Below are positions 41,470-57,655 of a stretch of 64,000 nucleotides of DNA, in pieces. The stretch is from positions 30,039 through 94,038 of the forward strand of contig CADBDE010000003.1 in the NCBI GenBank assembly GCA_902793375.1. Direction: 5' to 3'. The translations under genes were made by a program, and so were the position numbers. A model generated the notes under the pieces. That model was not told the DNA's origin and did no database searches. It was given only the letters and a program-made list of their open reading frames with translations. Origin of the DNA: an uncultured Erysipelotrichaceae bacterium. GTDB lineage: Bacteria > Bacillota_I > Bacilli_A > RF39 > UBA660. Within the stretch, counting starts at the first letter, position 1, and each line of letters starts with the position of its first letter.

Positions 41470-41919
41470 AATATCCCTATTTATTATTAACTTCCTTTAT
41501 TAATTCTTTTACTTCTTCTTTTTTTGTATTATCTTCAAAAGTTACTTTTTTCTTAGTAACAAGTTTAACTATTGTTCTTCCAAAAATCCCATCTTCTTAG
41601 AATTAGTTCCACCTTCGAAATAGAAAAATGGAGTATCTTCTAGTTTATTATCTTTAATCATTTTATCGATATTAATATCCTTTTTAGGAGTTAATCCAAC
41701 TCCAAAAACAATTAACTTTTTAGAGTTTATTTTTTTAATCTTTTTAACTCCTTTAATTATTCCTCCCATAATCCATCCACCATGAATAACTAAGTCATAA
41801 TTATTTACTTCTTTAACACTTTTTAGTTCTTTTAAATCACATTTTAATTCTTCGCTAATCCACTCTGCATATTTTTTAGTGAATCCAGTTTTACTTTGAT
41901 AAGTCACTAATACTTTCAT
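41470..41919 (-). pseudogene. Flavodoxin-like protein, apparently frameshifted. ORF 41569..41919 (116 aa) stops prematurely; the C-terminal 38 codons continue in another frame down to about 41471.
   Basis: MKVLVTYQSKTGFTKKYAEWI is a flavodoxin-like N-terminus. After ...KKMGFLEEQ-stop, an alternate frame reads EDGIFGRTIVKLVTKKKVTFEDNTKKEEVKELIKEVNNK, a plausible flavodoxin C-terminus. The switch lies at an A5 homopolymer (41575-41585). Confidence 0.4.
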
Positions 41920-42937
41920 AATAATTCTCCTGTTTTAATAAATCTTTTCTAATCTTTCTTGGTCCTCTAATTGCTTTTATACCTAAACTATTTAAATATT
42001 TAAATGTATAATCTTCTTTATCTAATCTTTTTAATAATTTAAGTTTCATAACACGATTAATAATTAAATTATCATCTTTATAATCATATGGCATATTAAC
42101 TACTGTTGCTTTACACTTATACATTACTTTTGAGTATGGCTCTGCTACATAAAGATATACTATATCATCAACATGTATATCACTTGATTGTTTCCATATT
42201 ACTTCATCAGTATCATTAAAGCAGTTAATTACATCATAATACTTAGGATTAGCAGGAACTATCCATGCTTCTTTTTCATCAATAATATTATAAGATTCAT
42301 CTATTAATTTAAATATTTCTTTATCACTTAAAGTATCATTTAAAATAATAGTAATCCAATCTTTTTTATTCATATGATATGCTTTATAAAACCCTTTTTG
42401 TTTTAATAAATCTAATATTTTTTCTTCATTTAATTTAACATTTATTATTTCTACTTCTCCACTACCATCATCTATTTTAGATAGATCAATATTCATAATA
42501 ATTGCATACCATTTATCATTATTTTTATTTCTATATACTCCACACCCAGGAGTTTTCTCCCATAAGAATTCTGGATCATTATTATATTTATCTTTAATAT
42601 ATTTATTAATTCTATTTGTTTGATTATTAATAAAATAATTTGTTTCGAAACATTTACTTTTAATATCTATTAATATTTCTTTATAAGAGTCTCTTACTTT
42701 ATTTACAAATTCTCCATTCATTTTAGATTTTAATCCTAAATATTCTTCATCTATTTGTAAATCAATTACTTTACCATTAAGAGCTCCCATATTATTAATA
42801 GTAATAATTGCATTAAAGTCATCATTTAAAAACTTTTTTTCATAAACATAATTATTATTACTCTTTTTAAATCCATATGCTTCTAACTTTTTAAAATCAA
42901 CACTTGCTCTTTTAAATACTTCTTCTTCTATATTCAT
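41891..42937 (-). CDS. Two-domain protein: MmcQ/YjbR-like predicted DNA-binding domain fused to a C-terminal EVE (PUA-like) domain
   Basis: YHMNKKDWITIILNDTLSDKEIFKLIDESY matches the YjbR signature (HMNKKHW...L). C-terminal WIVPANPKYYDV...IWKQSS...DIVYLYVAEPYSKVMY matches the EVE pattern. Confidence 0.5.
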   Translation of the reverse strand: MNIEEEVFKRASVDFKKLEAYGFKKSNNNYVYEKKFLNDDFNAIITINNMGALNGKVIDLQIDEEYLGLKSKMNGEFVNKVRDSYKEILIDIKSKCFETNYFINNQTNRINKYIKDKYNNDPEFLWEKTPGCGVYRNKNNDKWYAIIMNIDLSKIDDGSGEVEIINVKLNEEKILDLLKQKGFYKAYHMNKKDWITIILNDTLSDKEIFKLIDESYNIIDEKEAWIVPANPKYYDVINCFNDTDEVIWKQSSDIHVDDIVYLYVAEPYSKVMYKCKATVVNMPYDYKDDNLIINRVMKLKLLKRLDKEDYTFKYLNSLGIKAIRGPRKIRKDLLKQENYYESISDLSK

Positions 42938-43091: not shown

Positions 43092-44198
43092 TTATTTAAC
43101 CATTTGTAAATATATTCTTTCTTTATCAAAATAAATATCTTTAGTATCATTATATATTTTACTAATACTATCTATCTTATCAGTAAAGATTTTTATATTT
43201 GAATCCTTCATTTCTTCAAATTTAGATGAAATATTATCTTTCATATCCTGACTTTTATTCTTTAAATCTTCTCCACCTTTATTAAACCAAGAATCTATTT
43301 TTTTATCCTTTAAAAAAGATACTTTTTCTGAAAGACCACCAAGAGCTTTTCCAGTATTTCCAATTCCTGATAATACATTTCCTTGTAAAGACTTATTAGC
43401 TTCATTTTTTACAAATTCATAAGCTTTATTATAATTATCTATGTATTCATTACTAAGTGTTATTAATTCTTCTTTTCTAGATGAAAGATATTCTTTTTGG
43501 AAATTTTCTAAAAGCATTATTTCCATAAAAGAGGCAAAAGAATAAACATATAACGATAATCTATAATATGAAAAATCTTGTTCTAATTCATCTTGATTTT
43601 CATTTATAGATTTATTTGTTTTTAAAAATCCACTTTTTTTAATATCATCTGCTATTTGTTTTTGATAAAAATTTATATTTTTCATAGCAGTTCTTTTAAT
43701 ATCTAACATTTGATTATAATTATTATCAATATACTGTTCATCTTCCCAATTATATTTATAATCTACTATTACTCTATTTAAAGTTTTTAGATCTCCTTCT
43801 ATTTCTGCTTGTTTATCATTATCTAAAAAAGATAATATATCTTTACTAATTTCTTTAATTTCATTTACATCTTTTTCTATTTCTGCTAAAGAAATAGTAA
43901 TCATAATTGTAGCAGGATTAAATCCCATTTTATTTAAGTCTTTAGCTTTAGATTTATTTTTTGGATCTTTAAAGAAATCAATAACTGATTTAGGGCCTTC
44001 AAAATTATTTATTTTAAATACTTTATTATCATTATTATTATCATTTTGTTTAAATGCTTCATGATATTCTTTAAATTCTTCATTGATATCAGATAAGTTT
44101 GATAATAAAACTGAAAAACTATCTTTATCAATTTCTTCTTTTTTTACACTTGATAATATATAATTAGAATCTTCTATAATACTTTTATTATCTTCCAT
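43092..44198 (-). CDS. Hypothetical protein (368 aa)
   Basis: ORF only; coiled-coil-rich. Confidence 0.4.
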   Translation of the reverse strand: MEDNKSIIEDSNYILSSVKKEEIDKDSFSVLLSNLSDINEEFKEYHEAFKQNDNNNDNKVFKINNFEGPKSVIDFFKDPKNKSKAKDLNKMGFNPATIMITISLAEIEKDVNEIKEISKDILSFLDNDKQAEIEGDLKTLNRVIVDYKYNWEDEQYIDNNYNQMLDIKRTAMKNINFYQKQIADDIKKSGFLKTNKSINENQDELEQDFSYYRLSLYVYSFASFMEIMLLENFQKEYLSSRKEELITLSNEYIDNYNKAYEFVKNEANKSLQGNVLSGIGNTGKALGGLSEKVSFLKDKKIDSWFNKGGEDLKNKSQDMKDNISSKFEEMKDSNIKIFTDKIDSISKIYNDTKDIYFDKERIYLQMVK

Positions 44199-44542
44199 AG
44201 TTTCCTCCTAACTGTCTACAATGTTATTATAGCATATAAAAAGAAGAATACTTAACTATTCTTCTTAATTAATAATCACCATGATTATCTTAAATCTCAA
44301 TTTCATTTAATATTCTATTTAAGTATTCATAGTTTCTTATTTCATGAATACCAAAATACTTTTTACCCATATCTTTAATTGATATTCCACATAAATATAG
44401 TTTTTTCCTATCTATAATAATAAACCTATCATGAAATGAATTATTATGAATAAAAGTAACATTATGATATTCTTTTTCATACTTTTCTTTTAATACATTA
44501 TCTATATTTGCAGATACAATAATTATTTTTTTATCTATATTC

Positions 44543-45370
44543 TTAATTATTTTTCTTATACTTAAACAAGTATGATGGACGATGTCCTTCTCCTGTTTTC
44601 ATCTTATTTGTTTTTTCAACTTTATTAGCTATAATACGACGAAATGCAGGATCTAATAGTTTCTTATTTAGTATTACTTCATATACTTGTTGTAATTCTC
44701 CTAATGTAAAATACTCAGGCATCATGTTAAATACTATATCTGTATAATTTGCTTTATTTTTAATTCTTTCAATTGCAGATAAAATTACTAAATCATGATC
44801 GAATGCTAGGTATTTATTTTCTTTAGTAACAAATTGATAACGATCTGTTGTTCTTTCTCTTAATTCTTTCTTAATACTAAAATCAATTATTTCTTCATTA
44901 TTACTTAATGTTAATGTTACAACATTTTTTTCTTCTTTTATGGAAATGATGTTAAACCATGATGCATGTTCTACTTTTTCTTCTAATTTTTCTTTATCTA
45001 TTAATGCAACAAAAGAAGTTGATACAACTCTTAATCTTGGATCTCTATCAATTCTATCAAAAGTATATAATTGTTCTAAATAAATATTAGAAAGATTTGT
45101 TTCTCTTTTTAATACTCTTCTTGCACATTCTTCAAGTGTTTCATCTTTAGGATTTAAAAATCCTCCAGGCAAGCACCATTTATCTTTGTATGGATAGTCT
45201 TTCCTTTTTACCAATAAAACACTCATCATTTTCTTATCATTTTTACGATAATTATTTGTATCTTCATTAGAAACACTTATTATTGCTATATCAGTAGTCA
45301 TAGATAATTTTTCATACATACTTGAGTCATAATCTTTTAAAAACTCTTCTTCTGTTTTATATTCTTTCAT
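44543..45370 (-). CDS. nrtR: NrtR-type Nudix-related transcriptional regulator of NAD metabolism
   Basis: N-terminal Nudix fold with degenerate Nudix box (LLVKRKDYPYKDKWCLPGGFLNPKDETLEECARRVLKRETNL), plus about 100 C-terminal residues (winged-helix-like) in a 275-aa protein. Last gene of an NAD salvage operon. Confidence 0.65.
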   Translation of the reverse strand: MKEYKTEEEFLKDYDSSMYEKLSMTTDIAIISVSNEDTNNYRKNDKKMMSVLLVKRKDYPYKDKWCLPGGFLNPKDETLEECARRVLKRETNLSNIYLEQLYTFDRIDRDPRLRVVSTSFVALIDKEKLEEKVEHASWFNIISIKEEKNVVTLTLSNNEEIIDFSIKKELRERTTDRYQFVTKENKYLAFDHDLVILSAIERIKNKANYTDIVFNMMPEYFTLGELQQVYEVILNKKLLDPAFRRIIANKVEKTNKMKTGEGHRPSYLFKYKKNN

Positions 45371-45412
45371 CTTGCACCTCTTTTATACAAATTGATTATA
45401 ACATAAAAAGGA

Positions 45413-45889
45413 TTATTTTATAATTTTTAATAATTCTTTTTTTATAATTTCAATAATATATTTTTTATTATTTGCTCTATTATCTTTTATAGCAACAACT
45501 TCTTTAGTATAAAACTTATTATTATCTCTATCATAAATACTTATATATATTTTATTATTATTATTAACTATATTTCTTTTATCTATCCTGTTTATTTGAC
45601 CAGTTATTCCTACTCCATAATTTGAACTTGTAAAATCGCTTATATTTTTACTCATTTCATTAGCTGTTTCTTTTGAATAAACAGTATACTTATCAATTAC
45701 TTTTTTATTAACACCCATTTTTATTTTATATTCATTTGAGTACGTTACTGCACTATATTTAAAAACTTCACTAGATCCTTCTATATTTGTTATCTCGTTT
45801 GCAAGAAATCCTCCTGTACAAGACTCCATTGTAGATATTGTTTTATTTAGTTTAATTAGTCTTTTTACTATTTCTTTCATATAAACCAT
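45413..45889 (-). CDS. pncC: CinA-type nicotinamide-nucleotide amidohydrolase (PncC domain)
   Basis: TMESCTGGFLANEITNIEGSSEVFKYSAVTYSNEYK matches the CinA C-terminal domain signature (ESCTGG...GSS...VTYSN). Confidence 0.75.
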   Translation of the reverse strand: MVYMKEIVKRLIKLNKTISTMESCTGGFLANEITNIEGSSEVFKYSAVTYSNEYKIKMGVNKKVIDKYTVYSKETANEMSKNISDFTSSNYGVGITGQINRIDKRNIVNNNNKIYISIYDRDNNKFYTKEVVAIKDNRANNKKYIIEIIKKELLKIIK

Positions 45890-46415
45890 TCTTTTTAATA
45901 TAGTTTAATACTTTAGGATCTAAGAATTCATTTTTATTATTAACTCTTACACCAGTAGAAGATAAATCAAGACTTGGATAATTATCTAATACGATAAAAT
46001 TATCTTTATTATATTTCTCTAAATATTTATTTATATCTATACCATTTCTATTCATAATAATAATTTTATATTTTAATAGTTCTTGATAATTTTTCCATTT
46101 ATCAAAATTAATAATATTATCAGCACCCATAATTAAATATAAATCATGATTATATTTTTTTGATAATTCTTGCATTAATAAATAAGTATATGAAATATCA
46201 TTGTGTTCACAATCAATATGAATTTTATCAGTTTCAAAAAACTTTAACATATTAATTCGATGTTTAATATCTACTAAATCTTGTTTATTCCAATAATTTT
46301 GAGTTGCTACTATTAAAATTTGATCTACATAGTTATTATCTAATAAATAATTAACTAAATGGATATGTCCCTTATGAACTGGATTAAAGCTTCCTATAAA
46401 TACCCCTAATCTCAT
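45852..46415 (-). CDS. nadD: Nicotinate-nucleotide adenylyltransferase
   Basis: LGVFIGSFNPVHKGHIHLV is the (H/T)xGH nucleotidyltransferase motif of NadD. 187 aa. Confidence 0.85.
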   Translation of the reverse strand: MRLGVFIGSFNPVHKGHIHLVNYLLDNNYVDQILIVATQNYWNKQDLVDIKHRINMLKFFETDKIHIDCEHNDISYTYLLMQELSKKYNHDLYLIMGADNIINFDKWKNYQELLKYKIIIMNRNGIDINKYLEKYNKDNFIVLDNYPSLDLSSTGVRVNNKNEFLDPKVLNYIKKNGLYERNSKKTN

Positions 46416-46423
46416 ATTATCAC

Positions 46424-47188
46424 CTATTTCTTTGCCTTTACCTCACCATATTGATATGATTGCATTAATTCTAATTTAAATTTATTTAAAGTATGTTTTT
46501 TATCAATTAATGCTTTTACTTTAGGATTTTCACATTCACCAGTTCTTAAATAATTATCAAGTGTTGCATAAGTAAACCCTAAATTATCTTCATCAGTTTT
46601 ACCACATAATCCGTCAGATGGTGTTTTATAAACTAAATCGTATGGGAGTCCAAGTTCTAATCCTACTTTTCTTACTTCATCTACAGTTAAATTAGCAAGT
46701 GGTGCAACATCACCAGCTGAATCTCCATAGCGTGTAGAGTAACCTACCCAATCTTCTGATAAATTGCATGTGTTAATTACTCTTCCATTTAAAGATTGAC
46801 TAACAGCATATAAAGTTGTCATACGTGTTCTTGGTGGAATATTAATAATTGTCTGATTAGTAAGTTCTTTTATTCCAAGTTTTTTTAATTCATTTAAAGT
46901 TTCTTTTTTAACATCATCAACGATATCTTTAATATTAATAGTAATATTTTTAATATCTAAAAAATCACATACTCTTTTAGAATCAGCAATATCAGCTTGA
47001 TAACCATTTGGCATCAATACACCAATTACTCTATCTTTACCTATTGCCCTAGCACATAAAGCTGCTGTTACTGTAGAATCTTTACCACCTGAAATACCTA
47101 TAATGGCATTACAATCTTTTCCATTTTCATTAAACCAATTTCTTAACCATTCTAATAATTCTTTAGTTACTTTTTTTTCATCAAACAT
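46424..47188 (-). CDS. nadE: NH3-dependent NAD+ synthetase
   Basis: IGISGGKDSTVTAAL is the PP-loop SGGxDS motif. Length of 254 aa fits NadE. Confidence 0.85.
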   Translation of the reverse strand: MFDEKKVTKELLEWLRNWFNENGKDCNAIIGISGGKDSTVTAALCARAIGKDRVIGVLMPNGYQADIADSKRVCDFLDIKNITINIKDIVDDVKKETLNELKKLGIKELTNQTIINIPPRTRMTTLYAVSQSLNGRVINTCNLSEDWVGYSTRYGDSAGDVAPLANLTVDEVRKVGLELGLPYDLVYKTPSDGLCGKTDEDNLGFTYATLDNYLRTGECENPKVKALIDKKHTLNKFKLELMQSYQYGEVKAKK

Positions 47189-47190
47189 AT

Positions 47191-48018
47191 TTACATCTCC
47201 TTTTTACATTTTTCATAACCTTCAACAACAAAATAGTCATAACTTATAATTCCTTCAGTAAAATAATTAAAACTATTTATAGTTGTTTCAACTGTTTTCC
47301 ACAAAGTTACTTCAACTCCGTACACATCATATATTTCAGCTTTGTAAAAATTTCTTAAAAATTTAAAATTATTTTTTATATAATTACTAATCTCTTTATA
47401 AGCATCTATATCTTCTTTTAATTCATCATAACGATTATCAGTAGCACATCCTCTTAATTGGATATAACGTATATTTTTATTTGATGATAATTCTTTTATC
47501 ATATCTATTATTTCATTTTTATTGTATCTATTTACTACTATCCCAATACGATAATTCCTGTTTATAAATTTATTAATATCATTTAAATTTATAGTCTTTT
47601 TCACTTCTGTAATTTTAAGATTTGTTTCATCATTTAATGAGTGTACTGAATAACTTATTGTTCCATTTAAACTTTCTAATTCTTTTTTCTTTTCTATTGC
47701 TAATAAACCATTTGTTCTTATTCCAACGATAAAGTCTTTTGATTTTAAATATTCTATTAATTCTAAAAGATATTTGTATAATAATGGATCAGTGTTTTGC
47801 CCAGTTAAGTATATTTTTTTTATATTGTTTTTCTTACATATATCTAAATAATTATCAAAGTTTTTCCATTTTTTAAAATGAACATTTAAATAATTACTTT
47901 TTAAGCATTTAATATCCTTTCCTAAGCAAAAGAAACATTTATAATTACATGGTCCTTGCAAATTTATATTTGCAAATACTGGATTTTCTCTTTCTCTATT
48001 TTTATACATAAATATCAC
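47191..48018 (-). CDS. Radical SAM domain protein of unknown function, embedded in the NAD operon
   Basis: CNYKCFFC is a CxxxCxxC cluster at residues 25-32, followed by IYLTGQNTDPLL (SAM-binding glycine-rich-like). 275 aa. Confidence 0.65.
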   Translation of the reverse strand: MIFMYKNRERENPVFANINLQGPCNYKCFFCLGKDIKCLKSNYLNVHFKKWKNFDNYLDICKKNNIKKIYLTGQNTDPLLYKYLLELIEYLKSKDFIVGIRTNGLLAIEKKKELESLNGTISYSVHSLNDETNLKITEVKKTINLNDINKFINRNYRIGIVVNRYNKNEIIDMIKELSSNKNIRYIQLRGCATDNRYDELKEDIDAYKEISNYIKNNFKFLRNFYKAEIYDVYGVEVTLWKTVETTINSFNYFTEGIISYDYFVVEGYEKCKKEM

Positions 48019-48590
48019 TTCTTTTTTAAATAATTTTTACCTTTTTCAAGTGCATATATAGAATTTAATCCTCCTATATATCCTTTTTCTATGAGACAAT
48101 CGATTTCTTCAAAATCAACAAGTATATATTTTATAAATTCACCCTTATCTAGTTTTTGTTCTTTAACTTTTTTACAATGAAGTGCTACAAAGTAATGGTT
48201 ATATGCTTCTGAACAAGCTTGATCTTGATAAAAGCTTCCAAGCGATACAAACTCATCAGTTGTATATCCAGTCTCTTCTAATAGTTCTCTTTTTGCTGCA
48301 TCAAGAGCGGTTTCATTTTTTTCGATGTATCCAGCAGGAAGACCAACATCAACTGTTCTTTTAGTAAACACTCTTGGTTCTACTGCAAGTATTACTTTAT
48401 TATCTTCAGTAATAGGAAGAATAATAGATGCACTACCGCTTCCTCCATTTTTAAGTATTTTTTCTCTTTTTATTATTTCTCCATTATTAAGCTTACATTC
48501 ATAAGTTTTTGTTGTAAGAAAGTTACCACTTTCTGTTTCAATCATTTGAAGTGTCTTTAATTCATTAAAGTACTTTTCTATTTGGTTCAT
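48015..48590 (-). CDS. Nudix hydrolase (ADP-ribose pyrophosphatase-like)
   Basis: Nudix box GYIEKNETALDAAKRELLEETGY (Gx5Ex7REUxEExGU). Confidence 0.75.
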   Translation of the reverse strand: MNQIEKYFNELKTLQMIETESGNFLTTKTYECKLNNGEIIKREKILKNGGSGSASIILPITEDNKVILAVEPRVFTKRTVDVGLPAGYIEKNETALDAAKRELLEETGYTTDEFVSLGSFYQDQACSEAYNHYFVALHCKKVKEQKLDKGEFIKYILVDFEEIDCLIEKGYIGGLNSIYALEKGKNYLKKK

Positions 48591-50061
48591 TTCTTTTCAC
48601 CAACTTCTTGGCTTCCTCAATCATATCTTTTTTAAAGTTTACATAATTTTCTGTTCCATCTACATAATACTCATGAGGCATTACTGTTCTTTTAACCTCA
48701 GGATATAGTGTATCCATTTCTTTATTACAGTAATCTTTCTTTTCTAAAATACTTGGATCTTTATATACTAATTCTCCATTTATAAATATTGGTTTTTGTA
48801 ATTCAACTAAATCAAAGTTATCTATTGTAGTACTCTTTAAAAAGTCAGTTACACTTACTATTGTTAATTCTCTTTCATTTACTTTTTCATTATGTCTTGC
48901 TAGGACATCTGCTAATGCATAACCTGTTTTTTTATCGTATGCTCTATAAAGTTTCTTATAATCTGGATTTACTATTTTAATTGTGTCATTACTTAATTTA
49001 ATCTTTGGTACCCAAACACCTTTTTCTTTTCTCCAAGCTACTTCTTTATAAACACAACCCATTCTTCCTTCTGGTTTTGAAATGTTATCTCCTACTCCTA
49101 AGCTATCAAACTTAGCTCCTTGAGCAATTAATGTTTCTATTGTTTCAGCAGTAAGACCATTACTTAAACATATTTTAGCTTGTGGAAAACCTGCTTCATC
49201 TAACATTCTTCTTGCTTCTTTAGATAAGTATGCTAAGTCTCCTGAATCAATTCTAATTCCTATATGATTCGTATCAAGTCCATTTTCTTTCATATATTTA
49301 AATGTTTTAATAGCATTTGGAATACCACTTCTTAAAGTATCTATTGTGTCAACTAGTAATATACAGTTATTTGGATATGTTTTAGCATATTCAATAAATG
49401 ATTCTAATTCAGTTTCATAAGACTCTATCCATGAATGTGCTTGTGTTCCCATTGCTTTCATATTTAACATATTTGCAGCGATTATATTACTTGTTCCAAC
49501 ACATCCTGCCATAATACCATAGATTGATGCATCTATTGCAGCTTCGCAGCCATCAGCTCTTCTTGCACCAAACTCCATTACTCCAACATTTTTTGGTGTT
49601 GCTTCAATTATTCTTCTTGCACCAGTTGCATGTTCCATCGCACCATTTACTATTGATAATAAAGCTGTTTCTACAATTTGAGCTTCTATTAATGGAGCTT
49701 TTACTGTTACGATTGGCTCATTAGGAAACACTGGAGTTCCATCAGGTACTGCATATATGTCTCCAGTAAACTTAAATTTTTTTAAATAATTGATAAAATC
49801 TTCATCATAACCTTTTCTTCTAAAATAATCTAATTCTTGTTCACCAAACTTAAAGTTTTCGATAAATGGAATTACTTTATCAAGCCCTGCCATAATAGCA
49901 TATCCACCATTATTTGGAACTTTTCTAAAGAAAACATCAAATACTGCTTCTTCATCTTTCTTACCACTTTTTAAATAACCATTAGCCATTGTGAATTCAT
50001 ATTCATCATCCATTAATGTATAGTTTCTAGGAAGTCTTTCATATCCATTATAAATTTCCAT
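48565..50061 (-). CDS. pncB: Nicotinate phosphoribosyltransferase
   Basis: 498 aa; N-terminal LMDDEYEFTMANGYL and central MEFGARRA...GTQAHSW match NAPRTase family signatures. Confidence 0.85.
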   Translation of the reverse strand: MEIYNGYERLPRNYTLMDDEYEFTMANGYLKSGKKDEEAVFDVFFRKVPNNGGYAIMAGLDKVIPFIENFKFGEQELDYFRRKGYDEDFINYLKKFKFTGDIYAVPDGTPVFPNEPIVTVKAPLIEAQIVETALLSIVNGAMEHATGARRIIEATPKNVGVMEFGARRADGCEAAIDASIYGIMAGCVGTSNIIAANMLNMKAMGTQAHSWIESYETELESFIEYAKTYPNNCILLVDTIDTLRSGIPNAIKTFKYMKENGLDTNHIGIRIDSGDLAYLSKEARRMLDEAGFPQAKICLSNGLTAETIETLIAQGAKFDSLGVGDNISKPEGRMGCVYKEVAWRKEKGVWVPKIKLSNDTIKIVNPDYKKLYRAYDKKTGYALADVLARHNEKVNERELTIVSVTDFLKSTTIDNFDLVELQKPIFINGELVYKDPSILEKKDYCNKEMDTLYPEVKRTVMPHEYYVDGTENYVNFKKDMIEEAKKLVKRNEPNRKVL

Positions 50062-50062
50062 A

Positions 50063-50680
50063 TTATATACCTCTTTTCTTTTTAGCTAAAACTTTTATTC
50101 CATTAGCTTTCATTTCTTCTATTGCTCTTTTTGTTACTTCGTCAGCATCATGCCCTGGCGCATCATAAGTATCGATTCCATCTTCTGCTACATAGATATC
50201 AATATCTCTATCTAATTGATCAAATAGATTTCTTAATGTAATTCCTCCATTTTTAACACATACTTCTGATAGGCATCCCATAAGAAGTACTGTTTTAAGA
50301 TTTTTTAAACGATCTATAAAATCCATAAATCCTGGTGCAAATACGAAGTTTGTACTATTTTTAGTATAGTCATATGAACAATCTTTATAATCTTCTAGCT
50401 CATCAATTAACATTGGCTCTTCTGTATCTATAGAACAGTGTTCACCAAATGTTTTGTATTCAACTGAACCTTTATGATGCAAATCTCTTATAATTGCAAT
50501 TGCTTTGTTATCATCTTCTTTATAAGATTTTAAAAGTTCATGTTGTCTTCTTACTACCCTCATAATTGATGGTGCAGCAAGAGCTCCTTTCACTACGAAT
50601 CCTTTAACCATATCTATGTTTATGGCTAAGTGTTCAATTTTTAATTCTTGTTCTTGATTTGTTTTGTTATTAATTATCAT
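50063..50680 (-). CDS. pncA: Isochorismatase-family cysteine hydrolase, nicotinamidase-like
   Basis: Catalytic-triad context IDMVKGFV (Asp), K at about position 113, and LLMGCLSEVCV (Cys), as in PncA/isochorismatase hydrolases. First gene of the NAD operon. Confidence 0.65.
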   Translation of the reverse strand: MIINNKTNQEQELKIEHLAINIDMVKGFVVKGALAAPSIMRVVRRQHELLKSYKEDDNKAIAIIRDLHHKGSVEYKTFGEHCSIDTEEPMLIDELEDYKDCSYDYTKNSTNFVFAPGFMDFIDRLKNLKTVLLMGCLSEVCVKNGGITLRNLFDQLDRDIDIYVAEDGIDTYDAPGHDADEVTKRAIEEMKANGIKVLAKKKRGI

Positions 50681-50699
50681 TTTTCATCTCTCCTCTTTT

Positions 50700-50815
50700 T
50701 AACAACTTGTTAATAACATTAGGTATAAAAAAAGTAAATATTTCACACCTGTTATTAACATTATATTAATAACAAACAAAAATGTCAATACTCTTTTTAA
50801 CATTTTGTTAAAAAG
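50700..50815 (-). promoter_or_regulatory. Promoter/operator region of the NAD salvage operon with three palindromic elements (candidate NrtR operators)
   Basis: TGTTAATAACA at 50708-50718; its exact reverse complement TGTTATTAACA at 50750-50760; and TTTAACATTTTGTTAAA at 50796-50812. All lie within 140 bp upstream of the pncA start. Confidence 0.4.
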
Positions 50816-50926
50816 ATATACATTCTACTGTAAAGCAAACAAAAACAATTGCATCAATTATTGGGGAAATGATGAATTTGAAATAAAAGTGAGGCAATTA
50901 AAAAAAGTTATATAAATATAACTCTT

Positions 50927-51904
50927 TTAATCATCTTCATAATAATAATCATCTTCTTCCATATTTTCTTCTTCAAAATGGAATGGCTCATATTCACCTT
51001 TTTTAACTAAATCTTCTTCCCAAGACATTAAAGTAGTATCATTTTTTGATTTAGAATTATTAAATAATTTATATAAGAATCCAAAAAATAAAGTTTTCTT
51101 TATTTTCTTTTCATTTTCTTTTTTTGCTTTTTCTAATTCTTTTAAATTTTTTTCTAATTCATTTATTTCATTACTTATTTTATCAAATTTATCATAAATA
51201 AACGAATCATCAAATACATATGTATATCCTTCATCTTCATATTCTTCTTTTGGTTTTAATTTCTCTTCAGCTTTCTTTCTTTTTCTTTCTTCAATTACAT
51301 TTTTTCCTTCTTCAATTTTATCAAGTAATTCATTATAATCATCTATTGTATAATTTAAATAATCACAAGAATATCTTAGTGCAGATCTTAATTTATATAT
51401 ATTTTTTTCGTCAATAAAATCTTCTAATTTTTTAATATAATTTAAGTATTTTTTGTCATCTTTAAACGTCACCGTAAACATCAAAACATTTAAGTATTTT
51501 TTGTTTTCATAGTAAGTATTTTTTATTAATTCAACAATTTCTTTAATTCGTTCAATATTCTTTTTATATTCTACTAACATTCTTTCTTTTTCATATATCA
51601 TTTTTAATGACATTAATAAAGCATATACATGTTTACAATATTTATCCGTACTTTTGTGATATTCACACTCACAAGAAACATCGACAATATTATCATTATC
51701 AAAATCAATTGATACTTTATATTCTTTAGTACCTTCTACTAATCCAGATACTTTATTATTTGACTTATGAATGGCTTTTACTCTATCAATAGAATAATAA
51801 TTCTTTCCTCTTGACTTTATAATTTCTCTAAATAAATAATCATATTTCGTATTATTTAAATCATACATTTTTTCATCATAAGTTACTTTATCTAATTTCT
51901 TCAT
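50927..51904 (-). CDS. SWIM zinc-finger domain protein with acidic Tyr-rich C-terminus
   Basis: VSCECEYHKSTDKYCKHVYALL fits the SWIM CxCxnCxH zinc-finger pattern. C-terminus EENMEEDDYYYEDD. Confidence 0.5.
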   Translation of the reverse strand: MKKLDKVTYDEKMYDLNNTKYDYLFREIIKSRGKNYYSIDRVKAIHKSNNKVSGLVEGTKEYKVSIDFDNDNIVDVSCECEYHKSTDKYCKHVYALLMSLKMIYEKERMLVEYKKNIERIKEIVELIKNTYYENKKYLNVLMFTVTFKDDKKYLNYIKKLEDFIDEKNIYKLRSALRYSCDYLNYTIDDYNELLDKIEEGKNVIEERKRKKAEEKLKPKEEYEDEGYTYVFDDSFIYDKFDKISNEINELEKNLKELEKAKKENEKKIKKTLFFGFLYKLFNNSKSKNDTTLMSWEEDLVKKGEYEPFHFEEENMEEDDYYYEDD

Positions 51905-51986
51905 AGAATCATCTCAATAATTATTATATCATATTAAAAAATAAGGGGATTTAAAAAAACTTAAGATTTATACTTAAGTCAAAATA

Positions 51987-52517
51987 CTATTTCACATTTC
52001 CAATTCTTTTTACATAGTCTTTATAAATTTTAAAAAATTCTTTAGCATCAAAATAATAACTATCAATATTAAATTCTCTCTTTATAATACCTCTATTTGT
52101 ACATAGTTTTATTATGCAATCTCCACTTAAATCAATATTTTTTGATAATTCAATAAACTCTCTAGAATCATTTAATCCTGAAATATTAATAGGAAAAGTA
52201 GCAGAAAATAATTTAGATACACCTGTTATATTTTTACCGGTTCTACTAGTAATCTCACTTAATAATGTTGGATTTATATTTATTTTATATTCTTTTTCTC
52301 CTTTTACTATTTTTATACTATTAATAGATATTGGAAGTCTTGATTTATTTTCTATAAGCAAATCAAAAATATAAATATATTTATCCTTAATATAATTTCT
52401 AGTATATGAATTGATAATTAAATTAATATTTTTGTGATTACACTTATAAGTATAAATAGCATTACCTAACGATAAGACAAAAGCTAATATTGCAATAATG
52501 ATTGAAATTATTTCCAT
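51987..52517 (-). CDS. Hypothetical membrane-anchored protein (176 aa)
   Basis: N-terminal TM helix IISIIIAILAFVLSLG. No other motif. Confidence 0.35.
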   Translation of the reverse strand: MEIISIIIAILAFVLSLGNAIYTYKCNHKNINLIINSYTRNYIKDKYIYIFDLLIENKSRLPISINSIKIVKGEKEYKININPTLLSEITSRTGKNITGVSKLFSATFPINISGLNDSREFIELSKNIDLSGDCIIKLCTNRGIIKREFNIDSYYFDAKEFFKIYKDYVKRIGNVK

Positions 52518-52541
52518 ATTTTTTTACCTCCATTTTTATTT

Positions 52542-53462
52542 CTATTTATTGGTGTCATATTTATCAACTATTTTTATCAAGTCATTTTTTAAATTTTCTA
52601 TTTTTATCTCATATTCTTTTTTCGACTTTACTTCTTTATGAATGCAATTATTTATAATTCTTATTGCCTCTTTTTGCTGATCAGTACCATTCTCCTCAAT
52701 ATATTTACAAAAGTTATCATTTAAAGAATTTAGTTTGTTATCCATTAAATCATATTTCTTAATAGTATCTTCATCTTTATTAAAAAAACTAATGAGATTA
52801 TTTGAATCAAAATATTCTTTCAAAATGTGTATAGATTCCTCATTTTCTCTTGAAAACATTTTATCTATTTCATTTGTTGATTCATTATATTTTTGCTCTA
52901 TATAATTAATTTTTTCGTTTATTTTATCAAAAGAATATTGAATTCTAGGCTTTGATAATATGATTGATTCTATTCTCTTTTTTGATATTTTATTATATAC
53001 TTCATAGAAAATATCATTAATAATTATTCGTAATTTTTCAATAATTTTGAAATCAATAAACATCTCAAATAACATAGTATCATCTTCATCATCTTTAAAA
53101 AAATGATTTACTTGGTCTCTTATATATTTAATTATTTTATAAAAATTTGATTTGTAATTTGGTTGATTATAGTATTTTTTATCAGTTGCATAAAACTCTT
53201 TGTTTATAAAAAGTTCAAAGTCATTAAAACGCTTACATTTTCCAAATAAATCTTTTGAATTTTTTATAGAATTTAACAGGTTATATATAGAAGAACAATA
53301 AACTTTATATACCCTGTTTCTTTCAGTCATAGTGTCAATAGATAATTCTTTGTCATCAAATTCAACATATATTTTAGATAGTGTATTAGATAATTCTACA
53401 AAATCTTGAATTCTTAAAATACGTTTTATTTGTTTATTTGAATATGTCATAATATACCTCAC
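52542..53462 (-). CDS. Hypothetical protein (306 aa), all-helical; possible Abi-like gene by context only
   Basis: ORF only. Located in the defense-type island. Confidence 0.3.
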   Translation of the reverse strand: MRYIMTYSNKQIKRILRIQDFVELSNTLSKIYVEFDDKELSIDTMTERNRVYKVYCSSIYNLLNSIKNSKDLFGKCKRFNDFELFINKEFYATDKKYYNQPNYKSNFYKIIKYIRDQVNHFFKDDEDDTMLFEMFIDFKIIEKLRIIINDIFYEVYNKISKKRIESIILSKPRIQYSFDKINEKINYIEQKYNESTNEIDKMFSRENEESIHILKEYFDSNNLISFFNKDEDTIKKYDLMDNKLNSLNDNFCKYIEENGTDQQKEAIRIINNCIHKEVKSKKEYEIKIENLKNDLIKIVDKYDTNK

Positions 53463-53547
53463 TTTAATGTAATATTATATCATAAACTAGAATAACTTTT
53501 TTTCAAATTTATTATATAATTTTTTTATACAATTTATAATAAATAAT

Positions 53548-53580
53548 TAAAAACCGATGATAATCATTCATCGGTTATTT
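53548..53580 (-). terminator. Rho-independent terminator after the KAP NTPase gene
   Basis: aaccgatga-taatcat-tcatcggtt followed (minus sense) by ttttaattattt. Confidence 0.5.
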
Positions 53581-55476
53581 TCATAGTAATTCAAATTTTT
53601 CAGATAAAATGCTTAATAAATAATTTATAGCTTCTTTTTTTGTAACGCCATACTTATCTTTTTCCAATTTGTTAATACCATTTATTAATTCTTCAAATGA
53701 TTCTTTATCACTATCATAATACTCCTTCATATTTCCATTATTATATATTCTATCTATGCAATACTTAAAATAGTATATATTTTTATTATTACTTTTATCA
53801 ATATTACTTATTATTCTTTCTATATTCAATTTTGATAAAAAACCTTTCACATTAAAAAAGTAATTATAATTTTCACTTTCTCGAATATAATTATATAATT
53901 TTATTCCCCAATCATCATCAGTTAATATATTATCAAGAGAATCTTTATTAATATTGATATTTTTGTTTTTACTTGCTATTTTTAATCTTTCTATATTTTT
54001 ATTATAAGTATTCAATACCTTCTCATCTCTAATGATTTGCTCATAATTTATGTAATACTTTCTATCAAGATTTTTATCTATCTTATCTTCCATAATAGTT
54101 ATTATCTCATCAATAAGTTTAGTTTCAAAATTCAAATTCTGTAATGCTGATAATGTTACAATTATTTTTGGGAAAACACCACATGTATATAAATCATTGC
54201 TTAATTCATCTTTTAATGAATTTAATAGTTCATGCAATTTATCATCATCTAATTCCCAATAAATCTTTAATTTTGAAAATGCATTATCTGTATTTTCAAA
54301 GTCAGTTTCATTACTATTAATATATTCATCTATCGTACTCTCTATTTCTTTTATATCCACATCTTTATTTAGAATATAGTCATCAACAAACTTAAATGCT
54401 ACAAAATACATAAGCATGCTCTGATGTTCATCATCACCAAAACATGTTGTTTGATATTTTATTCCACCAGACCAATTCAACATTTTATTACCTGCTTTAA
54501 TATTAATAATATCAATAATAAAATTAATATATATTTTTGAATACATTTCTTTTTTTAATTTTAATTTAGCTTCATTTATTTTTAAAAACAGTTCATAAAA
54601 ATCTTCGAATATACATTTTATTGTTCTTAAATTGCTACAAGTATATAAGTTGGTTTCATTAATCAATATTTTTTTATGTTCCTTTAAAAACATAAAGTAA
54701 TCTTTATCATATTTATATATATCAATCAACCTATCTATTATTGTATCTAAATTAGGATTATATTTATAAGTTTTACCAATTAGTTTTTCTTTAATAATCC
54801 TGTAATTATAATTTATTTCATATAAACGATTCACTCTTTCTTTTACAGTAGAAATAGTCGGTGTAGTATTATCAATTTTATTACCAAAAAAATCTTTATT
54901 TTCAGGATCTTCATAATTAATGCTTGATTGCATCGTAGATATAAGTTTCAATTCATAGTTCTTATCAAAATCTATTTTACCAATTTCATTTTCATTTGCA
55001 ATTATAACTACTTTTATACCATTATGTTCAACGAATGAATTAATATATGCTAAGCACACATTAATATCTAAATTTACTCTTTCTAAATCATCAAATATTA
55101 ATAAATAATTTTTTAAATCACATTTTTCATTTAGTTTTCCAAACACTTCTGAATAATCTAAATCTAGTTTTAGTATTTTAGCTGCACTAAAACCAATTGA
55201 AAGCATTTTTGAATACTTTCCTGTGATTTGTAAATAAATATTGGCAGATATTATATCTAGAGAATCTACACCATATAATGATATGTATATAGGTTTCTTA
55301 AATTTTAAAGATGGTTTTTTCCCATTACTTTTAATATCATCATTTAATTTTGGAATCAATTCTTCTTTAACAAAATGTGTTTTCCCTGATCCCCAGTCTC
55401 CATCAATTAATACAGCATAATTTATTCTGTCATTTACTATATATTTTTTTATTTCTTCTATTAAATCTAAATTCAT
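53581..55476 (-). CDS. KAP-family P-loop NTPase
   Basis: AVLIDGDWGSGKTHFV is the KAP-type GxWGxGKT Walker A; LIFDDLER is the Walker B region. 631 aa. Confidence 0.7.
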   Translation of the reverse strand: MNLDLIEEIKKYIVNDRINYAVLIDGDWGSGKTHFVKEELIPKLNDDIKSNGKKPSLKFKKPIYISLYGVDSLDIISANIYLQITGKYSKMLSIGFSAAKILKLDLDYSEVFGKLNEKCDLKNYLLIFDDLERVNLDINVCLAYINSFVEHNGIKVVIIANENEIGKIDFDKNYELKLISTMQSSINYEDPENKDFFGNKIDNTTPTISTVKERVNRLYEINYNYRIIKEKLIGKTYKYNPNLDTIIDRLIDIYKYDKDYFMFLKEHKKILINETNLYTCSNLRTIKCIFEDFYELFLKINEAKLKLKKEMYSKIYINFIIDIINIKAGNKMLNWSGGIKYQTTCFGDDEHQSMLMYFVAFKFVDDYILNKDVDIKEIESTIDEYINSNETDFENTDNAFSKLKIYWELDDDKLHELLNSLKDELSNDLYTCGVFPKIIVTLSALQNLNFETKLIDEIITIMEDKIDKNLDRKYYINYEQIIRDEKVLNTYNKNIERLKIASKNKNININKDSLDNILTDDDWGIKLYNYIRESENYNYFFNVKGFLSKLNIERIISNIDKSNNKNIYYFKYCIDRIYNNGNMKEYYDSDKESFEELINGINKLEKDKYGVTKKEAINYLLSILSEKFELL

Positions 55477-57635: not shown

Positions 57636-57655
57636 ATTTTTATCACTCCTAATTT

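Follow-up and report, generated by a model that had tools for sequence, protein, structure and literature searches.

Why should a radical SAM enzyme be encoded in the middle of an operon for NAD+ salvage? To our knowledge, the route of NAD+ salvage is considered completely mapped, and we know of no step in it, or in the catabolism of ADP-ribose (ADPR), that needs radical chemistry. The question is raised by a stretch of 64,000 nucleotides from an uncultured Erysipelotrichaceae bacterium (the window), in which an uncharacterised radical SAM gene, here called rSAM, is packed among genes for NAD+ re-synthesis. We propose that its product is an enzyme linked in function to NAD+ salvage, and to an ADPR pyrophosphatase above all, and that it acts on ADPR or a close derivative. 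We give this reading a probability of roughly 0.42, and its chemistry is inferred. The finding is relevant to metabolism in jumbo phages and in uncultured lineages with reduced genomes (CPR, DPANN, gut Bacilli and Gastranaerophilales).

Operon structure and control region

The open reading frame at 47191..48018 lies on the minus strand and belongs to a unit of eight genes on that strand, pncA-pncB-Nudix-rSAM-nadE-nadD-pncC-nrtR, with gaps of no more than 42 nt (Table 1). The initial annotation had placed it between a Nudix hydrolase gene and nadE, and Pfam and NCBIfam matches confirm a Nudix hydrolase upstream and an NAD synthase downstream. It had also described a protein of 275 aa with a CNYKCFFC cluster, and gaps or overlaps of 2–4 nt on both sides. 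The reading frame and the motif (residues 24–31 in the 275-aa numbering) exist, but the strand is minus and the start is most likely ATG 48009, which would give a gene at 47191..48009 and 272 aa, not 275. We place the start there because an identical database protein of 272 aa (P0001, 100% identity, on at least 21 contigs) begins at this ATG, homolog alignments begin at the methionine that it encodes, and the purine-rich AAGAAGTGA lies 6–14 nt upstream. The packing is tight, as had been claimed: the gap from the end of rSAM to the nadE ATG (47188) is 2 nt, and the gap on the Nudix side, from the stop at 48015, is 5 nt, turning into a 4-nt overlap with the GTG start.

Table 1 Genes and control elements of the NAD operon, with the matches on which each assignment rests.
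Feature	Position	Strand	Length	Evidence
Isochorismatase-family protein, presumed nicotinamidase PncA	50063..50680	-	205 aa	Pfam Isochorismatase 2.2e-15; pncA position of pncA-pncB operons
Nicotinate phosphoribosyltransferase PncB	48565..50061	-	498 aa	NCBIfam NF006695 555.6 bits vs cutoff 469; Pfam NAPRTase_N/_C
Nudix hydrolase, ADP-ribose/ADP-sugar pyrophosphatase type	48015..48590	-	191 aa	Pfam NUDIX 5.7e-14
Radical SAM enzyme (rSAM), uncharacterised family	47191..48009	-	272 aa	Length from ATG at 48009; ORF listing reaches GTG at 48018 (275 aa)
NH3-dependent NAD+ synthase NadE	46424..47188	-	254 aa	Pfam NAD_synthase 8.7e-50; TIGR00552 166 bits vs cutoff 63.65
Nicotinate-nucleotide adenylyltransferase NadD	45852..46415	-	187 aa	TIGR00482 117.9 bits vs cutoff 112.45
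PncC/CinA-C nicotinamide-nucleotide amidohydrolase family	45413..45889	-	158 aa as listed	Pfam CinA 4e-28; TIGR00199 81.9 bits vs cutoff 68.9
NrtR-type regulator, degenerate Nudix plus NrtR winged-helix	44543..45370	-	275 aa	Pfam NrtR_WHD 1.5e-16 plus NUDIX
Sigma-70 promoter of the operon, TTGACA-17 nt-TATAAT	50760..50788	-		12/12 consensus match
Perfect palindrome TGTTATTAA-N7-TTAATAACA over the -10 box, candidate NrtR operator	50750..50774	.		0 mismatches; no binding data
Second, degenerate palindrome copy, core GTTATTAACA, between promoter and pncA RBS	50694..50718	.		2 mismatches

The Nudix hydrolase keeps an intact catalytic box, GYIEKNETALDAAKRELLEETG; among proteins of solved structure it comes closest to ADP-ribose pyrophosphatases/NudF (E about 1e-13), and its top NCBIfam match, NudE, falls below the cutoff. 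The NrtR protein, for which TransRepNtr is the best NCBIfam match, has no catalytic Nudix box. No NCBIfam equivalog matches the PncA-like protein, and the PncC/CinA protein is 155 aa long in the database gene call (L063).

The promoter is the only 12/12 site in 44000–51200, and its TTGACA/TATAAT arrangement upstream of pncA is kept in four related Bacilli loci (L003, L004, L010 and L066). These four also carry, at the place equivalent to the second palindrome, a further GTTATTAAC/TA site, and a near-identical version of the main palindrome, GTTATTAATATAATGTTAATAAC, is kept in the same orthologous operons and in L001. Having nrtR as the last gene of the unit and a palindrome over the -10 box that is conserved in orthologous operons meets the criterion for an NrtR regulon. 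Co-regulation of the operon by NrtR and ADPR is nonetheless an inference, without data on NrtR binding or ADPR release; responsiveness to ADPR is known for other NrtRs (PMC2330246). Since there is one promoter with a conserved palindromic operator, rSAM is expected to be induced as NAD+ is consumed and ADPR, the known effector of NrtR, builds up.

The radical SAM family

The rSAM protein matches Pfam Radical_SAM (PF04055) with 42.3 bits, above the gathering score of 29.5 (E=1.2e-10). It is a real gene and no chance reading frame, because more than 400 homologs exist (those with E<=1e-30 form 79 clusters at 50% identity), 51 positions are invariant in an alignment of 22 diverse members, and the AF2 model reaches a pLDDT of 90.8. 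The only invariant cysteines among the 22 are C24, C28 and C31 of the CxxxCxxC cluster, with C61 nearly invariant, and the C-terminal part carries an invariant, family-specific motif, NSxNYFTxGxxSxxYFxxEGY; K6, R10, R101, R157 and R189 are invariant too. The partial (beta/alpha)6 TIM-barrel fold expected of the superfamily is present as well. The GGE(P) motif, which follows beta2 and binds the amino group of SAM, varies across the radical SAM superfamily; in this family its position reads TGQ(N/T)xD(P/G), with T72, G73, Q74 and D77 invariant. Because of that variation we read TGQxxD, on the alignment, as an unexplained deviation and not as a reason for exclusion from the superfamily. Catalytic competence is inferred, there being no biochemical data.

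Among curated families (Pfam and NCBIfam) only the generic Radical_SAM model scores above threshold; MoaA, W-cofactor maturase, YydG, NrdG2 and TYW1 stay below theirs. A PDB sequence search gives viperins as the best matches (E about 1e-8), Foldseek with the model returns MoaA, DesII and a viperin-like structure as the top three, and the PADLOC pVip HMM scores 57 bits, aligning residues 17–189 with profile positions 3–172 of 257. Judged by sequence and predicted structure, the nearest relatives are therefore MoaA, DesII and, for the core alone, the viperins; the substrates of all three are nucleotides or NDP-sugars. Membership of the SPASM/twitch group was rejected, with no SPASM or Fer4 match in Pfam, no conserved C-terminal cysteines and a length of only about 275 aa. 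QueE was rejected too, as its threshold is not reached and the requirement of an equivalog match in a queuosine/7-deazaguanine gene context is not fulfilled.

The initial annotation had named two outcomes that would refute it, operon synteny not conserved in relatives and classification as a generic activase misplaced by rearrangement; both were checked and neither applies. An activase like those of PFL or anaerobic RNR, a maturase of a salvage enzyme or a misplaced gene is a disfavoured explanation and seems extremely improbable. The family falls outside the activase thresholds as it does outside SPASM/twitch: the NrdG2 score is 28.3 bits where 131.15 would be needed, neither PFLA nor NrdG is matched, PFL-AE is only distantly similar in fold, and glycyl-radical enzymes are absent from the operon and do not recur nearby. 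The family also has an invariant C-terminal motif of its own. Misplacement is excluded because both the gene order and the fusions are kept in different domains of life, the association with NAD genes recurring independently in archaea, in phages and in gene fusions (below). As far as sequence can tell, rSAM founds a well-conserved, single-cluster family of about 275 aa, for which we found no curated or published description. The family is concentrated in the uncultured reduced-genome lineages named above and in jumbo phages, and is as much a phage, CPR and DPANN gene as a Firmicutes one.

Gene neighbourhoods and fusions

The order pncA-pncB-Nudix-rSAM-nadE is kept, with promoter and operator, in related Bacilli (L002–L004, L010 and L066) in which rSAM is only 57–68% identical. 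The position that had been called fixed is thus conserved in gut Bacilli, although not strictly, since in L001 (also Bacilli) rSAM comes after nadD. In DPANN archaea rSAM lies beside NrtR-like Nudix genes and a PRTase: one locus (L015) has rSAM-NrtR with an intact Nudix box and no pyridine enzyme, and another (L022) reads NAPRTase-like-x-rSAM-NrtR. Elsewhere we observe Nudix...rSAM-PncC (L024), Nudix-rSAM in a phage (L030), NadE, PncA and PncB (484 bits) near rSAM (L037/L046), and a Nudix gene plus NADAR (L068). In one jumbo phage (L070) an NMNAT-Nudix gene (380 bits) is followed by NAMPT (554 bits) and, 53 nt downstream, by rSAM; in another (L072) the NMNAT-Nudix stop overlaps the rSAM start. 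NAMPT plus NMNAT, the NARP2 gene set, was met only in these two rSAM-carrying phage loci and not in the window operon.

NAD genes lie within 6–8 kb of rSAM in 8 of the 32 non-redundant phage-type loci (binomial P 4e-6 to 1e-4, assuming NAD-gene backgrounds of 3–5%). Genes for NAD synthesis are found in 26% of gut jumbo phages (PMC11662467), so that some co-occurrence is expected by chance. In about 70% of the family's loci (20 of 28 from genomes and 28 of 33 from IMG/VR) no NAD gene is detectable within 6 kb, and a place in a salvage operon is therefore not obligatory for rSAM. At the loci without NAD genes, BLAST clustering of neighbours and a Pfam scan of the 129 nearest ones turned up no recurrent gene other than those for NAD; integrase, RNA ligase and a second rSAM were encountered only twice each. 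A tblastn search of 50,697 cultured phage records (INPHARED), which include NadV/NatV phages, found no homolog, and a plasmid collection gave one weak match, in a 2.6-Mb Acetoanaerobium noterae record. A scan of viral_contigs with a single phage NAMPT sequence gave no match, in a mode that detects near-identical proteins only. Because the cultured NadV/NatV phages lack rSAM, as does the NrtR operon of C. acetobutylicum (PMC2330246), the enzyme is dispensable for canonical salvage.

Several of the phage and archaeal neighbourhoods would also suit an enzyme that modifies RNA or tRNA, or that serves RNA repair or the processing of NAD-capped RNA, with NAD genes nearby as phage RNA-repair and NAD modules cluster. 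There are RNA ligases in L045/L058, L062 and L006, PTH2 in L037/L046, RlaP in L020, CCA-adding/PolyA_pol together with NADAR in L068 and RsmB/F in L022, and rSAM itself has weak TYW1 matches. We consider this very unlikely, given that a Pfam scan of rSAM shows no RNA-binding domain (TRAM, THUMP or PUA-type), that no fusion partner is RNA-related, that the Bacilli operons contain no RNA genes and that RNA ligase makes up only 2 of the 129 nearest neighbours.

Among gene fusions, P0132 has the form rSAM-X-HAD, and P0144/P0279 have the form rSAM-X-HAD-HAD-SDR. Domain X is an ADPR pyrophosphatase of the NUDT9 type (1q33, E=2e-35), and the SDR, which matches GDP-mannose 3',5'-epimerase (E=6e-7), belongs to the NDP-sugar type. 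The HAD-like domain has DxHGT in place of DxDGT and may therefore not be a simple phosphatase; it has no informative solved relative. Two bacterial megaproteins carry rSAM among PncA, PncB and NadE domains plus HAD and Nudix: P0131 (4008 aa, a continuous reading frame verified in L074), which also has an NMNAT domain, and P0138 (2927 aa). A distant relative, P0227, is fused to a domain of the cytidylyl/adenylyltransferase fold. The initial annotation had suggested that the enzyme works in pyridine-nucleotide or ADP-ribose metabolism. The NUDT9-type fusion strengthens that suggestion and shifts it towards ADP-ribose, while the reaction remains unproven.

The same partners bear on whether the substrate could instead be a pyridine nucleotide (NAD(H), NaAD or NMN/NaMN), with rSAM modifying or repairing the cofactor, or rescuing a non-salvageable NAD derivative for the Nudix and salvage enzymes. 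NUDT9 is an ADPR-specific enzyme, and this type of domain is the tightest and only covalent partner of rSAM; the fused SDR is of the NDP-sugar type, and archaeal L015 pairs rSAM with Nudix/NrtR alone. On these grounds a pyridine substrate seems unlikely, even though rSAM is embedded between pncB and nadE, adjoins three types of pyridine PRTase (PncB type I, type II and NAMPT) as well as NMNAT, and has the P0227 fusion. NudE/NudF-type Nudix enzymes, moreover, also accept NADH. A precedent for such an accessory enzyme exists in Adpp of NARP1-AP, which makes NAD breakdown products recyclable (bioRxiv 10.64898/2026.01.28.702374).

The likeness to viperins raises another possibility, that rSAM is a conflict effector making an altered nucleotide that serves as a ddhNTP-like chain terminator or as a signal, switched on by ADPR and NrtR when NAD-depleting immunity fires, the NAD genes being co-regulated without sharing its pathway. 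Viperins and pVips are the best sequence relatives, yet only the core of rSAM fits pVip, the viperin C-terminal substrate domain is unmatched, and the NCBIfam model viperin_w_prok (cutoff 180) gives no match at E<=0.01, so viperin/pVip was rejected as an identity. CNYKCFFC resembles the viperin cluster motif and aligns to CNKECLFC of a fungal viperin. The genomic setting can be read both ways. Contig comparison finds the identical operon in three flank contexts that differ between contigs (for example RT plus SLATT), and the window flanks hold defence-type genes: a KAP NTPase identified as PDC-S49 (170 bits), a Schlafen-like helicase and NERD/HRDC. The phage copies, by contrast, abut the counter-defence genes NadV/NatV, rSAM is common in CPR and DPANN loci without a defence context, and both the ADPRase/HAD fusions and the whole-pathway salvage megaproteins fit metabolism and not a toxic nucleotide. 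A conflict effector thus appears quite unlikely.

Proposed role and comparison with known systems

A functional link of rSAM to NAD and ADPR metabolism is very probable. Its recurrence with Preiss-Handler genes, with phage NAMPT and NMNAT-Nudix, with NrtR and in the NUDT9-type fusion implies that ADP-ribose, or a related nucleotide derived from NAD, undergoes a reaction not yet described. That the substrate is ADPR itself or a direct derivative is an inference that we hold at somewhat less than even odds. In this proposal rSAM would be transcribed from one promoter with pncA, pncB, the active ADPR-type Nudix gene, nadE, nadD, pncC and nrtR. By analogy with viperin, MoaA and DesII, its 5'-deoxyadenosyl radical would take a hydrogen from the ribose of a nucleotide or NDP-sugar, most likely ADPR or a close NAD-derived ADP-ribosyl compound, and a conversion of the dehydration or rearrangement type may follow. 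The partner Nudix enzyme would handle the product or the substrate of rSAM by cleaving the pyrophosphate, and in the fused versions the HAD-like domain and the NDP-sugar-type SDR could also act. Such a module would deal with the ADPR half of spent NAD+, while the pyridine half goes back into NAD+ synthesis.

A viperin-like dehydration of the ribose in particular is inferred and doubtful. Equally speculative is the full form of the idea, namely that rSAM and the ADPR pyrophosphatase make up an unrecognised radical branch, in which ribose-directed dehydration or rearrangement of ADPR, or of a defence-generated ADP-ribosyl product, would yield a keto- or deoxy-pentose nucleotide, which Nudix cleaves and which the SDR, where fused, reduces. 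Jumbo phages might then use the pair as an accessory to NadV/NatV under NAD-depleting immunity, and reduced-genome anaerobes (gut Bacilli, CPR and DPANN) under ADPR/NrtR control.

Compared with its relatives, the family stands apart in sequence and in partners. Viperin and pVip, which synthesise 3'-deoxy-3',4'-didehydro-NTPs, align to residues 17–189 only, leaving the C-terminal third with its invariant motif, and have GGEP where rSAM has TGQxxD; the curated viperin model is unmatched. They partner nucleotide kinases, whereas rSAM partners an ADPR pyrophosphatase and NAD salvage genes, and its phage copies sit by counter-defence genes. MoaA, the GTP 3',8-cyclase, was rejected with a score far below its cutoffs (50 bits against 284/325), and rSAM has neither its C-terminal second cluster (there is no conserved C-terminal cysteine) nor a molybdopterin gene context. 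To enzymes of NDP-sugars and sugar nucleosides of the DesII/BlsE/AbmM type the identity is only 11–17%; rSAM lacks an antibiotic or deoxysugar cluster, and its presumed NDP-sugar would be ADP-ribose.

Like the NrtR-regulated NAD salvage operons described in 2008, the window operon combines this regulator family and the same Preiss-Handler and universal genes with a promoter that has a palindromic operator (PMC2330246). Those operons contain no radical SAM gene, and the window adds rSAM and an active ADPR-type Nudix enzyme. We found no paper that relevantly joins radical SAM enzymes with NrtR, NadV, phage NAD salvage, NAMPT/Nudix neighbourhoods or ADP-ribose pyrophosphatase, and papers on NARP3, aRES, the viral NAD-ADPr survey and NAD in gut jumbo phages do not mention such an enzyme. 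Among phage pathways of NAD+ reconstitution, NARP2 consists of NadV and NMNAT and NARP3 of PnuC and NadR, and KVP40 has NadV/NatV salvage. None of NARP1, NARP1-AP, NARP2, NARP3 and KVP40 NadV/NatV includes a radical SAM enzyme; the 'QueE radical SAM' of KVP40/phi-pp2 was rejected as a counterpart, being an unrelated gene far from the NAD genes there. There is a resemblance to the NARP2/NatV set, as the jumbo-phage rSAM directly abuts NAMPT and a bifunctional NMNAT-Nudix. Where NARP2 uses NAMPT and NMNAT, the window operon has PncA, PncB, NadD and NadE, the Preiss-Handler route. For an accessory enzyme that extends a core pathway, Adpp of NARP1-AP provides the precedent.

Gene placement and a putative operator

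We put the probability that the radical SAM enzyme (rSAM) encoded within the NAD salvage operon is functionally linked to NAD/ADP-ribose (ADPR) metabolism at about 85%. Its fold class, its single SAM cluster, the packing of the operon and the conservation of the promoter/operator sequence are observed, as is the repeated, independent linkage and fusion of rSAM with ADPR pyrophosphatase and enzymes of NAD salvage. The initial annotation had described a 275-aa protein encoded at 47191..48018 between a Nudix gene and nadE. Both neighbours and the CNYKCFFC motif are borne out (Pfam Radical_SAM 42.3 bits versus a gathering threshold of 29.5), and the open reading frame is real, with its strand to be given as minus, but the GTG start at 48018, taken from the ORF listing, is less likely than the ATG at 48009, which gives 272 aa. 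On sequence grounds we place the start at this ATG because the identical public copy P0001 (272 aa, 100% identity, present on over 20 contigs, the longest 251 kb) begins there, homologs align from the Met it encodes and a purine-rich AAGAAGTGA lies upstream. The gene is then separated by 5 nt from the Nudix stop and by 2 nt from the nadE ATG. The GC content of the operon (0.23-0.27) is no different from that of its flanks.

Features of the window with position, strand and basis of assignment
Feature	Position	Strand	Basis
PncA-like protein, isochorismatase family	50063-50680	-	domain/family profile matches
PncB	48565-50061	-	domain/family profile matches
Nudix, catalytic box intact	48015-48590	-	domain/family profile matches, box check
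rSAM (start as placed here)	47191..48009	-	Pfam Radical_SAM, CNYKCFFC
NadE, NH3-dependent	46424-47188	-	domain/family profile matches
NadD	45852-46415	-	domain/family profile matches
PncC/CinA	45413-45889	-	domain/family profile matches
NrtR	44543-45370	-	domain/family profile matches
Sigma-70 consensus	50788..50760	-	TTGACA-17-TATAAT
Palindrome (putative operator)	50750-50774		TGTTATTAA-N7-TTAATAACA
Defence-island-like region	50927-59389
SWIM-like protein	50927-51904
KAP NTPase	53581-55476		PADLOC candidate system PDC-S49, 170 bits
NERD/HRDC protein	55634-56638
Schlafen-group-3-like helicase	57656-59389		weak AbiO match
AAA/STAND-like protein, 984 aa	7979-10933
348-aa protein, YjbR/MmcQ-like domain	41891-42937		precomputed Pfam (L063)
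Small flavodoxin-like ORF	41569-41919
tRNA-His(GTG)	6800-6875	-
tRNA-Leu(CAA)	19845-19930	-

Just one perfect match to the sigma-70 consensus occurs in 44-51.2 kb, a short distance upstream of pncA. Its -10 box is overlapped by a perfect palindrome, a second, degenerate copy of which lies nearer the ribosome-binding site. Upstream regions of the orthologous operons in four other loci (L003, L004, L010 and L066), whose rSAMs share only 57-63% identity with that of the window, carry TTGACA, approximately 15 nt, GTTATTAATATAATGTTAATAAC and then a further GTTATTAAC/TA site, and a related palindrome is present in L001. This conserved arrangement is a phylogenetic footprint of a predicted operator, with the NrtR of the same operon as the obvious candidate to bind it, although binding is inferred and not shown. 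In NrtRs that have been characterised, the established effector is ADP-ribose (PMC2330246).

The window as a whole (~25% GC, genes nearly all on one strand, strongly negative GC skew) is consistent with a low-GC Bacilli chromosome. Upstream of the operon it looks like a defence island, and the two ORFs tabulated downstream show no evident connection with it. A viperin-like conflict effector co-regulated by ADPR would suit the KAP NTPase, Schlafen-like helicase and NERD/HRDC flanks and the similarity of rSAM to prokaryotic viperins (pVip); we hold it improbable, given that phage rSAM genes adjoin NadV/NatV genes and that the fusions of rSAM are metabolic.

Distribution and gene neighbourhoods

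A one-genome-per-species scan gave 29 loci with the rSAM family. Archaea are represented by DPANN (Woese-, Pace-, Nano- and Aenigmatarchaeota), and the bacterial loci belong to gut Bacilli and Clostridia MAGs, Gastranaerophilales, CPR (Saccharibacteria, Sungbacteria), Neomarinimicrobiota, Planctomycetia and Peptococcaceae CEB3. A further 33 loci, viral ones, came from IMG/VR, and many of these contigs measure 100-375 kb. No homolog was found by tblastn in 50,697 cultured phage records, and the plasmid collection yielded one weak match only, to a 2.6-Mb Acetoanaerobium noterae record.

Synteny holds in relatives, with pncA-pncB-Nudix-rSAM-nadE found again in the Bacilli loci L002-L004, L010 and L066/L067; some of these loci also encode a glutamine-dependent NadE, a methyltransferase and NAD kinase, along with additional small ORFs. 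The fixed position claimed for rSAM stands only in part, given that Nudix-rSAM-nadE recurs in Bacilli but rSAM follows nadD in L001. The window operon itself is intact in three different flank contexts. With an identical rSAM, the eight-gene operon is flanked by NERD/KAP NTPase, RNase_T-like or reverse transcriptase and SLATT_5 genes (L063, L064 and L065), and these differing flanks therefore suggest a variable, possibly mobile neighbourhood. The L064 NrtR gene is apparently split or truncated.

Over the loci as a whole, rSAM accompanies three types of pyridine phosphoribosyltransferase (PRTase) and both salvage routes, and Nudix is its most constant partner. Archaeal rSAM genes precede an NrtR-like gene with an intact Nudix box (L015), in one case after a NAPRTase-like gene and a 72-aa ORF (L022). 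These 221-aa proteins (L015:6900-7565, L022:6938-7603) join Nudix and an NrtR winged helix with a perfect catalytic box, which the window NrtR lacks, and may be both enzyme and regulator. Clostridia locus L024 reads Nudix...rSAM-PncC. Among phage-type contigs, L030 reads Nudix-rSAM, L061 has NadE and a PRTase, L068 has Nudix and NADAR within 6 kb, and L037/L046 have NadE, PncA and an E. coli-type PncB (484 bits) at a distance of two short ORFs upstream of rSAM. In the jumbo-phage contig L070 (249 kb), genes for NMNAT, a bifunctional NMNAT-Nudix (380 bits) and a NAMPT (554 bits) are followed 53 nt downstream by rSAM; in L072 (205 kb), also from a jumbo phage, rSAM starts within the end of the NMNAT-Nudix gene, and a split NAMPT comes directly after. 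This NAD gene cluster seems to be a target of homing elements: a GIY-YIG group-I-intron-type endonuclease directly follows rSAM in L070 (7878-8459), and the L072 NAMPT occupies two ORFs (8769-11058; N-terminal 142 aa, catalytic 320 aa) with a 183-aa ORF between.

NAD genes lie within 6-8 kb in 8 of 32 non-redundant phage-type loci (binomial P 4e-6 to 1e-4, a rough estimate from a generous 3-5% chance per 12-kb window). The phage background is not negligible: NARP2 (NadV plus NMNAT) occurs in ~1% of phages (bioRxiv 10.64898/2026.01.28.702374), and complete NAD synthesis is encoded by 26% of gut jumbo phages, at any place in genomes of >200 kb (PMC11662467).

By phmmer, 20 of the 28 genome loci and 28 of the 33 IMG/VR loci had no NAD gene detectable within 6 kb, and a Pfam scan of the 129 nearest neighbours in 39 non-redundant NAD-less loci revealed no recurrent family (maximum three members; RNA ligase, a second radical SAM and integrase two each). 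Hence, the enzyme can stand on its own, and whatever metabolite it uses must be generally available. RNA ligase, PTH2, RlaP, CCA-adding enzyme and RsmB neighbours in some loci could point to an RNA-directed role, which remains very improbable without RNA-related fusions or an RNA-binding domain in rSAM. In viral contig L045 (4899-5966) the RNA ligase immediately upstream carries an intein-splicing-domain insert. An unrelated second radical SAM (~300 aa) lies near the family member in L037 (2989-3888 and 7300-8163) and at L046 equivalents, and another lies directly upstream in a Clostridia MAG (L005:623-1543), all with sub-threshold MoaA/maturase matches; the L037/L046 phages also have a UDP-glucose/GDP-mannose dehydrogenase-family ORF two genes downstream.

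Fusion proteins

The strongest evidence for the NAD link is fusion, revealed as long rSAM proteins by an exhaustive search of 50% clusters. P0132 (771 aa) and P0141, P0279 and P0144 (1273-1824 aa) read rSAM-X-HAD, where X is a highly conserved segment of ~270 aa. Judged by its matches to human NUDT9 (1q33, E=2e-35) and TRPM2 NUDT9-H domains (1e-34 to 1e-17), X is a NUDT9-type ADP-ribose pyrophosphatase. In parallel, the closest solved structures to the window Nudix are ADP-ribose pyrophosphatases/NudF (E ~1e-13). P0144 has a second HAD repeat, and P0144 and P0279 end in an extended-SDR domain of NDP-sugar epimerase/dehydratase type (GDP-mannose 3',5'-epimerase, E=6e-7). The HAD-like domains after NUDT9 (P0132 ~555-771, P0144 ~735-1200, P0131 ~3415-3560) have DxHGT instead of the canonical DxDGT phosphatase motif and no informative solved relative, so they may do something other than simple phosphate hydrolysis. 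P0227, which is only distantly related, carries a fused domain of cytidylyl/adenylyltransferase fold.

Two megaproteins, P0131 and P0138, hold rSAM among a complete or near-complete set of NAD salvage domains. P0131 (4008 aa, source name 'NAD+ synthase (glutamine-hydrolysing)') has the Pfam order NMNAT, HAD, CN-hydrolase plus NAD synthase, NAPRTase, isochorismatase, NAPRTase_N, rSAM, HAD_2, Nudix, with NUDT9-like X at residues 3139-3414 between rSAM and HAD_2, and thus packs the whole salvage pathway into one polypeptide. Its uninterrupted 12,027-nt ORF was verified on a bacterial contig (L074:290-12316; JGI 3300038675, Ga0416708_001524) beside LptF/LptG genes. P0138 (2927 aa) is similar in order without the NMNAT match. 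These Rosetta-stone fusions indicate that rSAM works within NAD salvage, immediately beside ADPR hydrolysis.

Family placement and proposed reaction

A word-indexed search gave 419 matches (the first 120 at E<=1e-71), and the exhaustive cluster search 79, 223 and 2430 representatives at E<=1e-30, E<=1e-10 and E<=1e-3, respectively. Among 22 diverse members, 51 columns are invariant, with stretches including FANIN..G.CN..C.FC, TGQ..D, RTNG, YIQ.R and the C-terminal NS.NYFT.G..S..YF..EGY. Only the three cluster cysteines are invariant (C61 nearly so), which rules out a SPASM/twitch domain or MoaA-type second cluster. No curated NCBIfam model was reached: MoaA scored 50 bits versus cutoffs of 284-325 and NrdG2 28 versus 131. 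A generic activase or misplaced gene is accordingly hardly credible, with these scores, no glycyl-radical partner and conserved synteny. Source annotations of homologs say only 'MoaA/NifB/PqqE/SkfB family radical SAM enzyme'.

In a confident AlphaFold2 model (pLDDT 90.8), Foldseek ranked MoaA first, DesII second and a viperin-like enzyme third. Viperins are nearest by sequence (PDB E ~1e-8; PADLOC pVip HMM 57 bits), but alignment is confined to rSAM residues 17-189, and TGQxxD stands in place of the canonical GGEP motif. The enzyme sits in the MoaA/viperin/DesII neighbourhood and belongs to none of these families. Small single-domain enzymes of this neighbourhood act on nucleotides or NDP-sugars, from which they abstract a hydrogen of the ribose or sugar.

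We tentatively favour ADPR-type substrates, at somewhat less than even odds. A rise in ADPR would derepress the operon, rSAM would act on ADPR or a close ADP-ribosyl/NAD-derived nucleotide, taking a hydrogen from its ribose and then dehydrating or rearranging it, and Nudix would cleave the pyrophosphate of substrate or product. In fused systems the HAD-like domain and NDP-sugar SDR may finish the conversion; an SDR would suit a keto-sugar nucleotide intermediate. Viperin-like dehydration in particular is doubtful. A pyridine-nucleotide substrate, as in cofactor modification or repair, is unlikely.

Full-text searches, in which subscription journals were thinly covered, found no publication that connects radical SAM enzymes with NrtR regulons, with NAD salvage, with the NadV/NAMPT pathways of phages or with ADPR pyrophosphatase. 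None is mentioned in the NrtR regulon paper (PMC2330246), the NARP3 paper or the viral NAD-ADPr survey, and the aRES/NARP1-AP preprint (bioRxiv 10.64898/2026.01.28.702374) and the gut jumbo-phage study (PMC11662467) have no such enzyme. We rate rSAM as a new functional family inside the radical SAM superfamily. Canonical salvage works without rSAM in C. acetobutylicum (PMC2330246) and occurs without it in cultured NadV phages. Gene sets for NAD salvage/reconstitution that carry the rSAM-plus-ADPRase module are, in our rating, an extended form of such sets.
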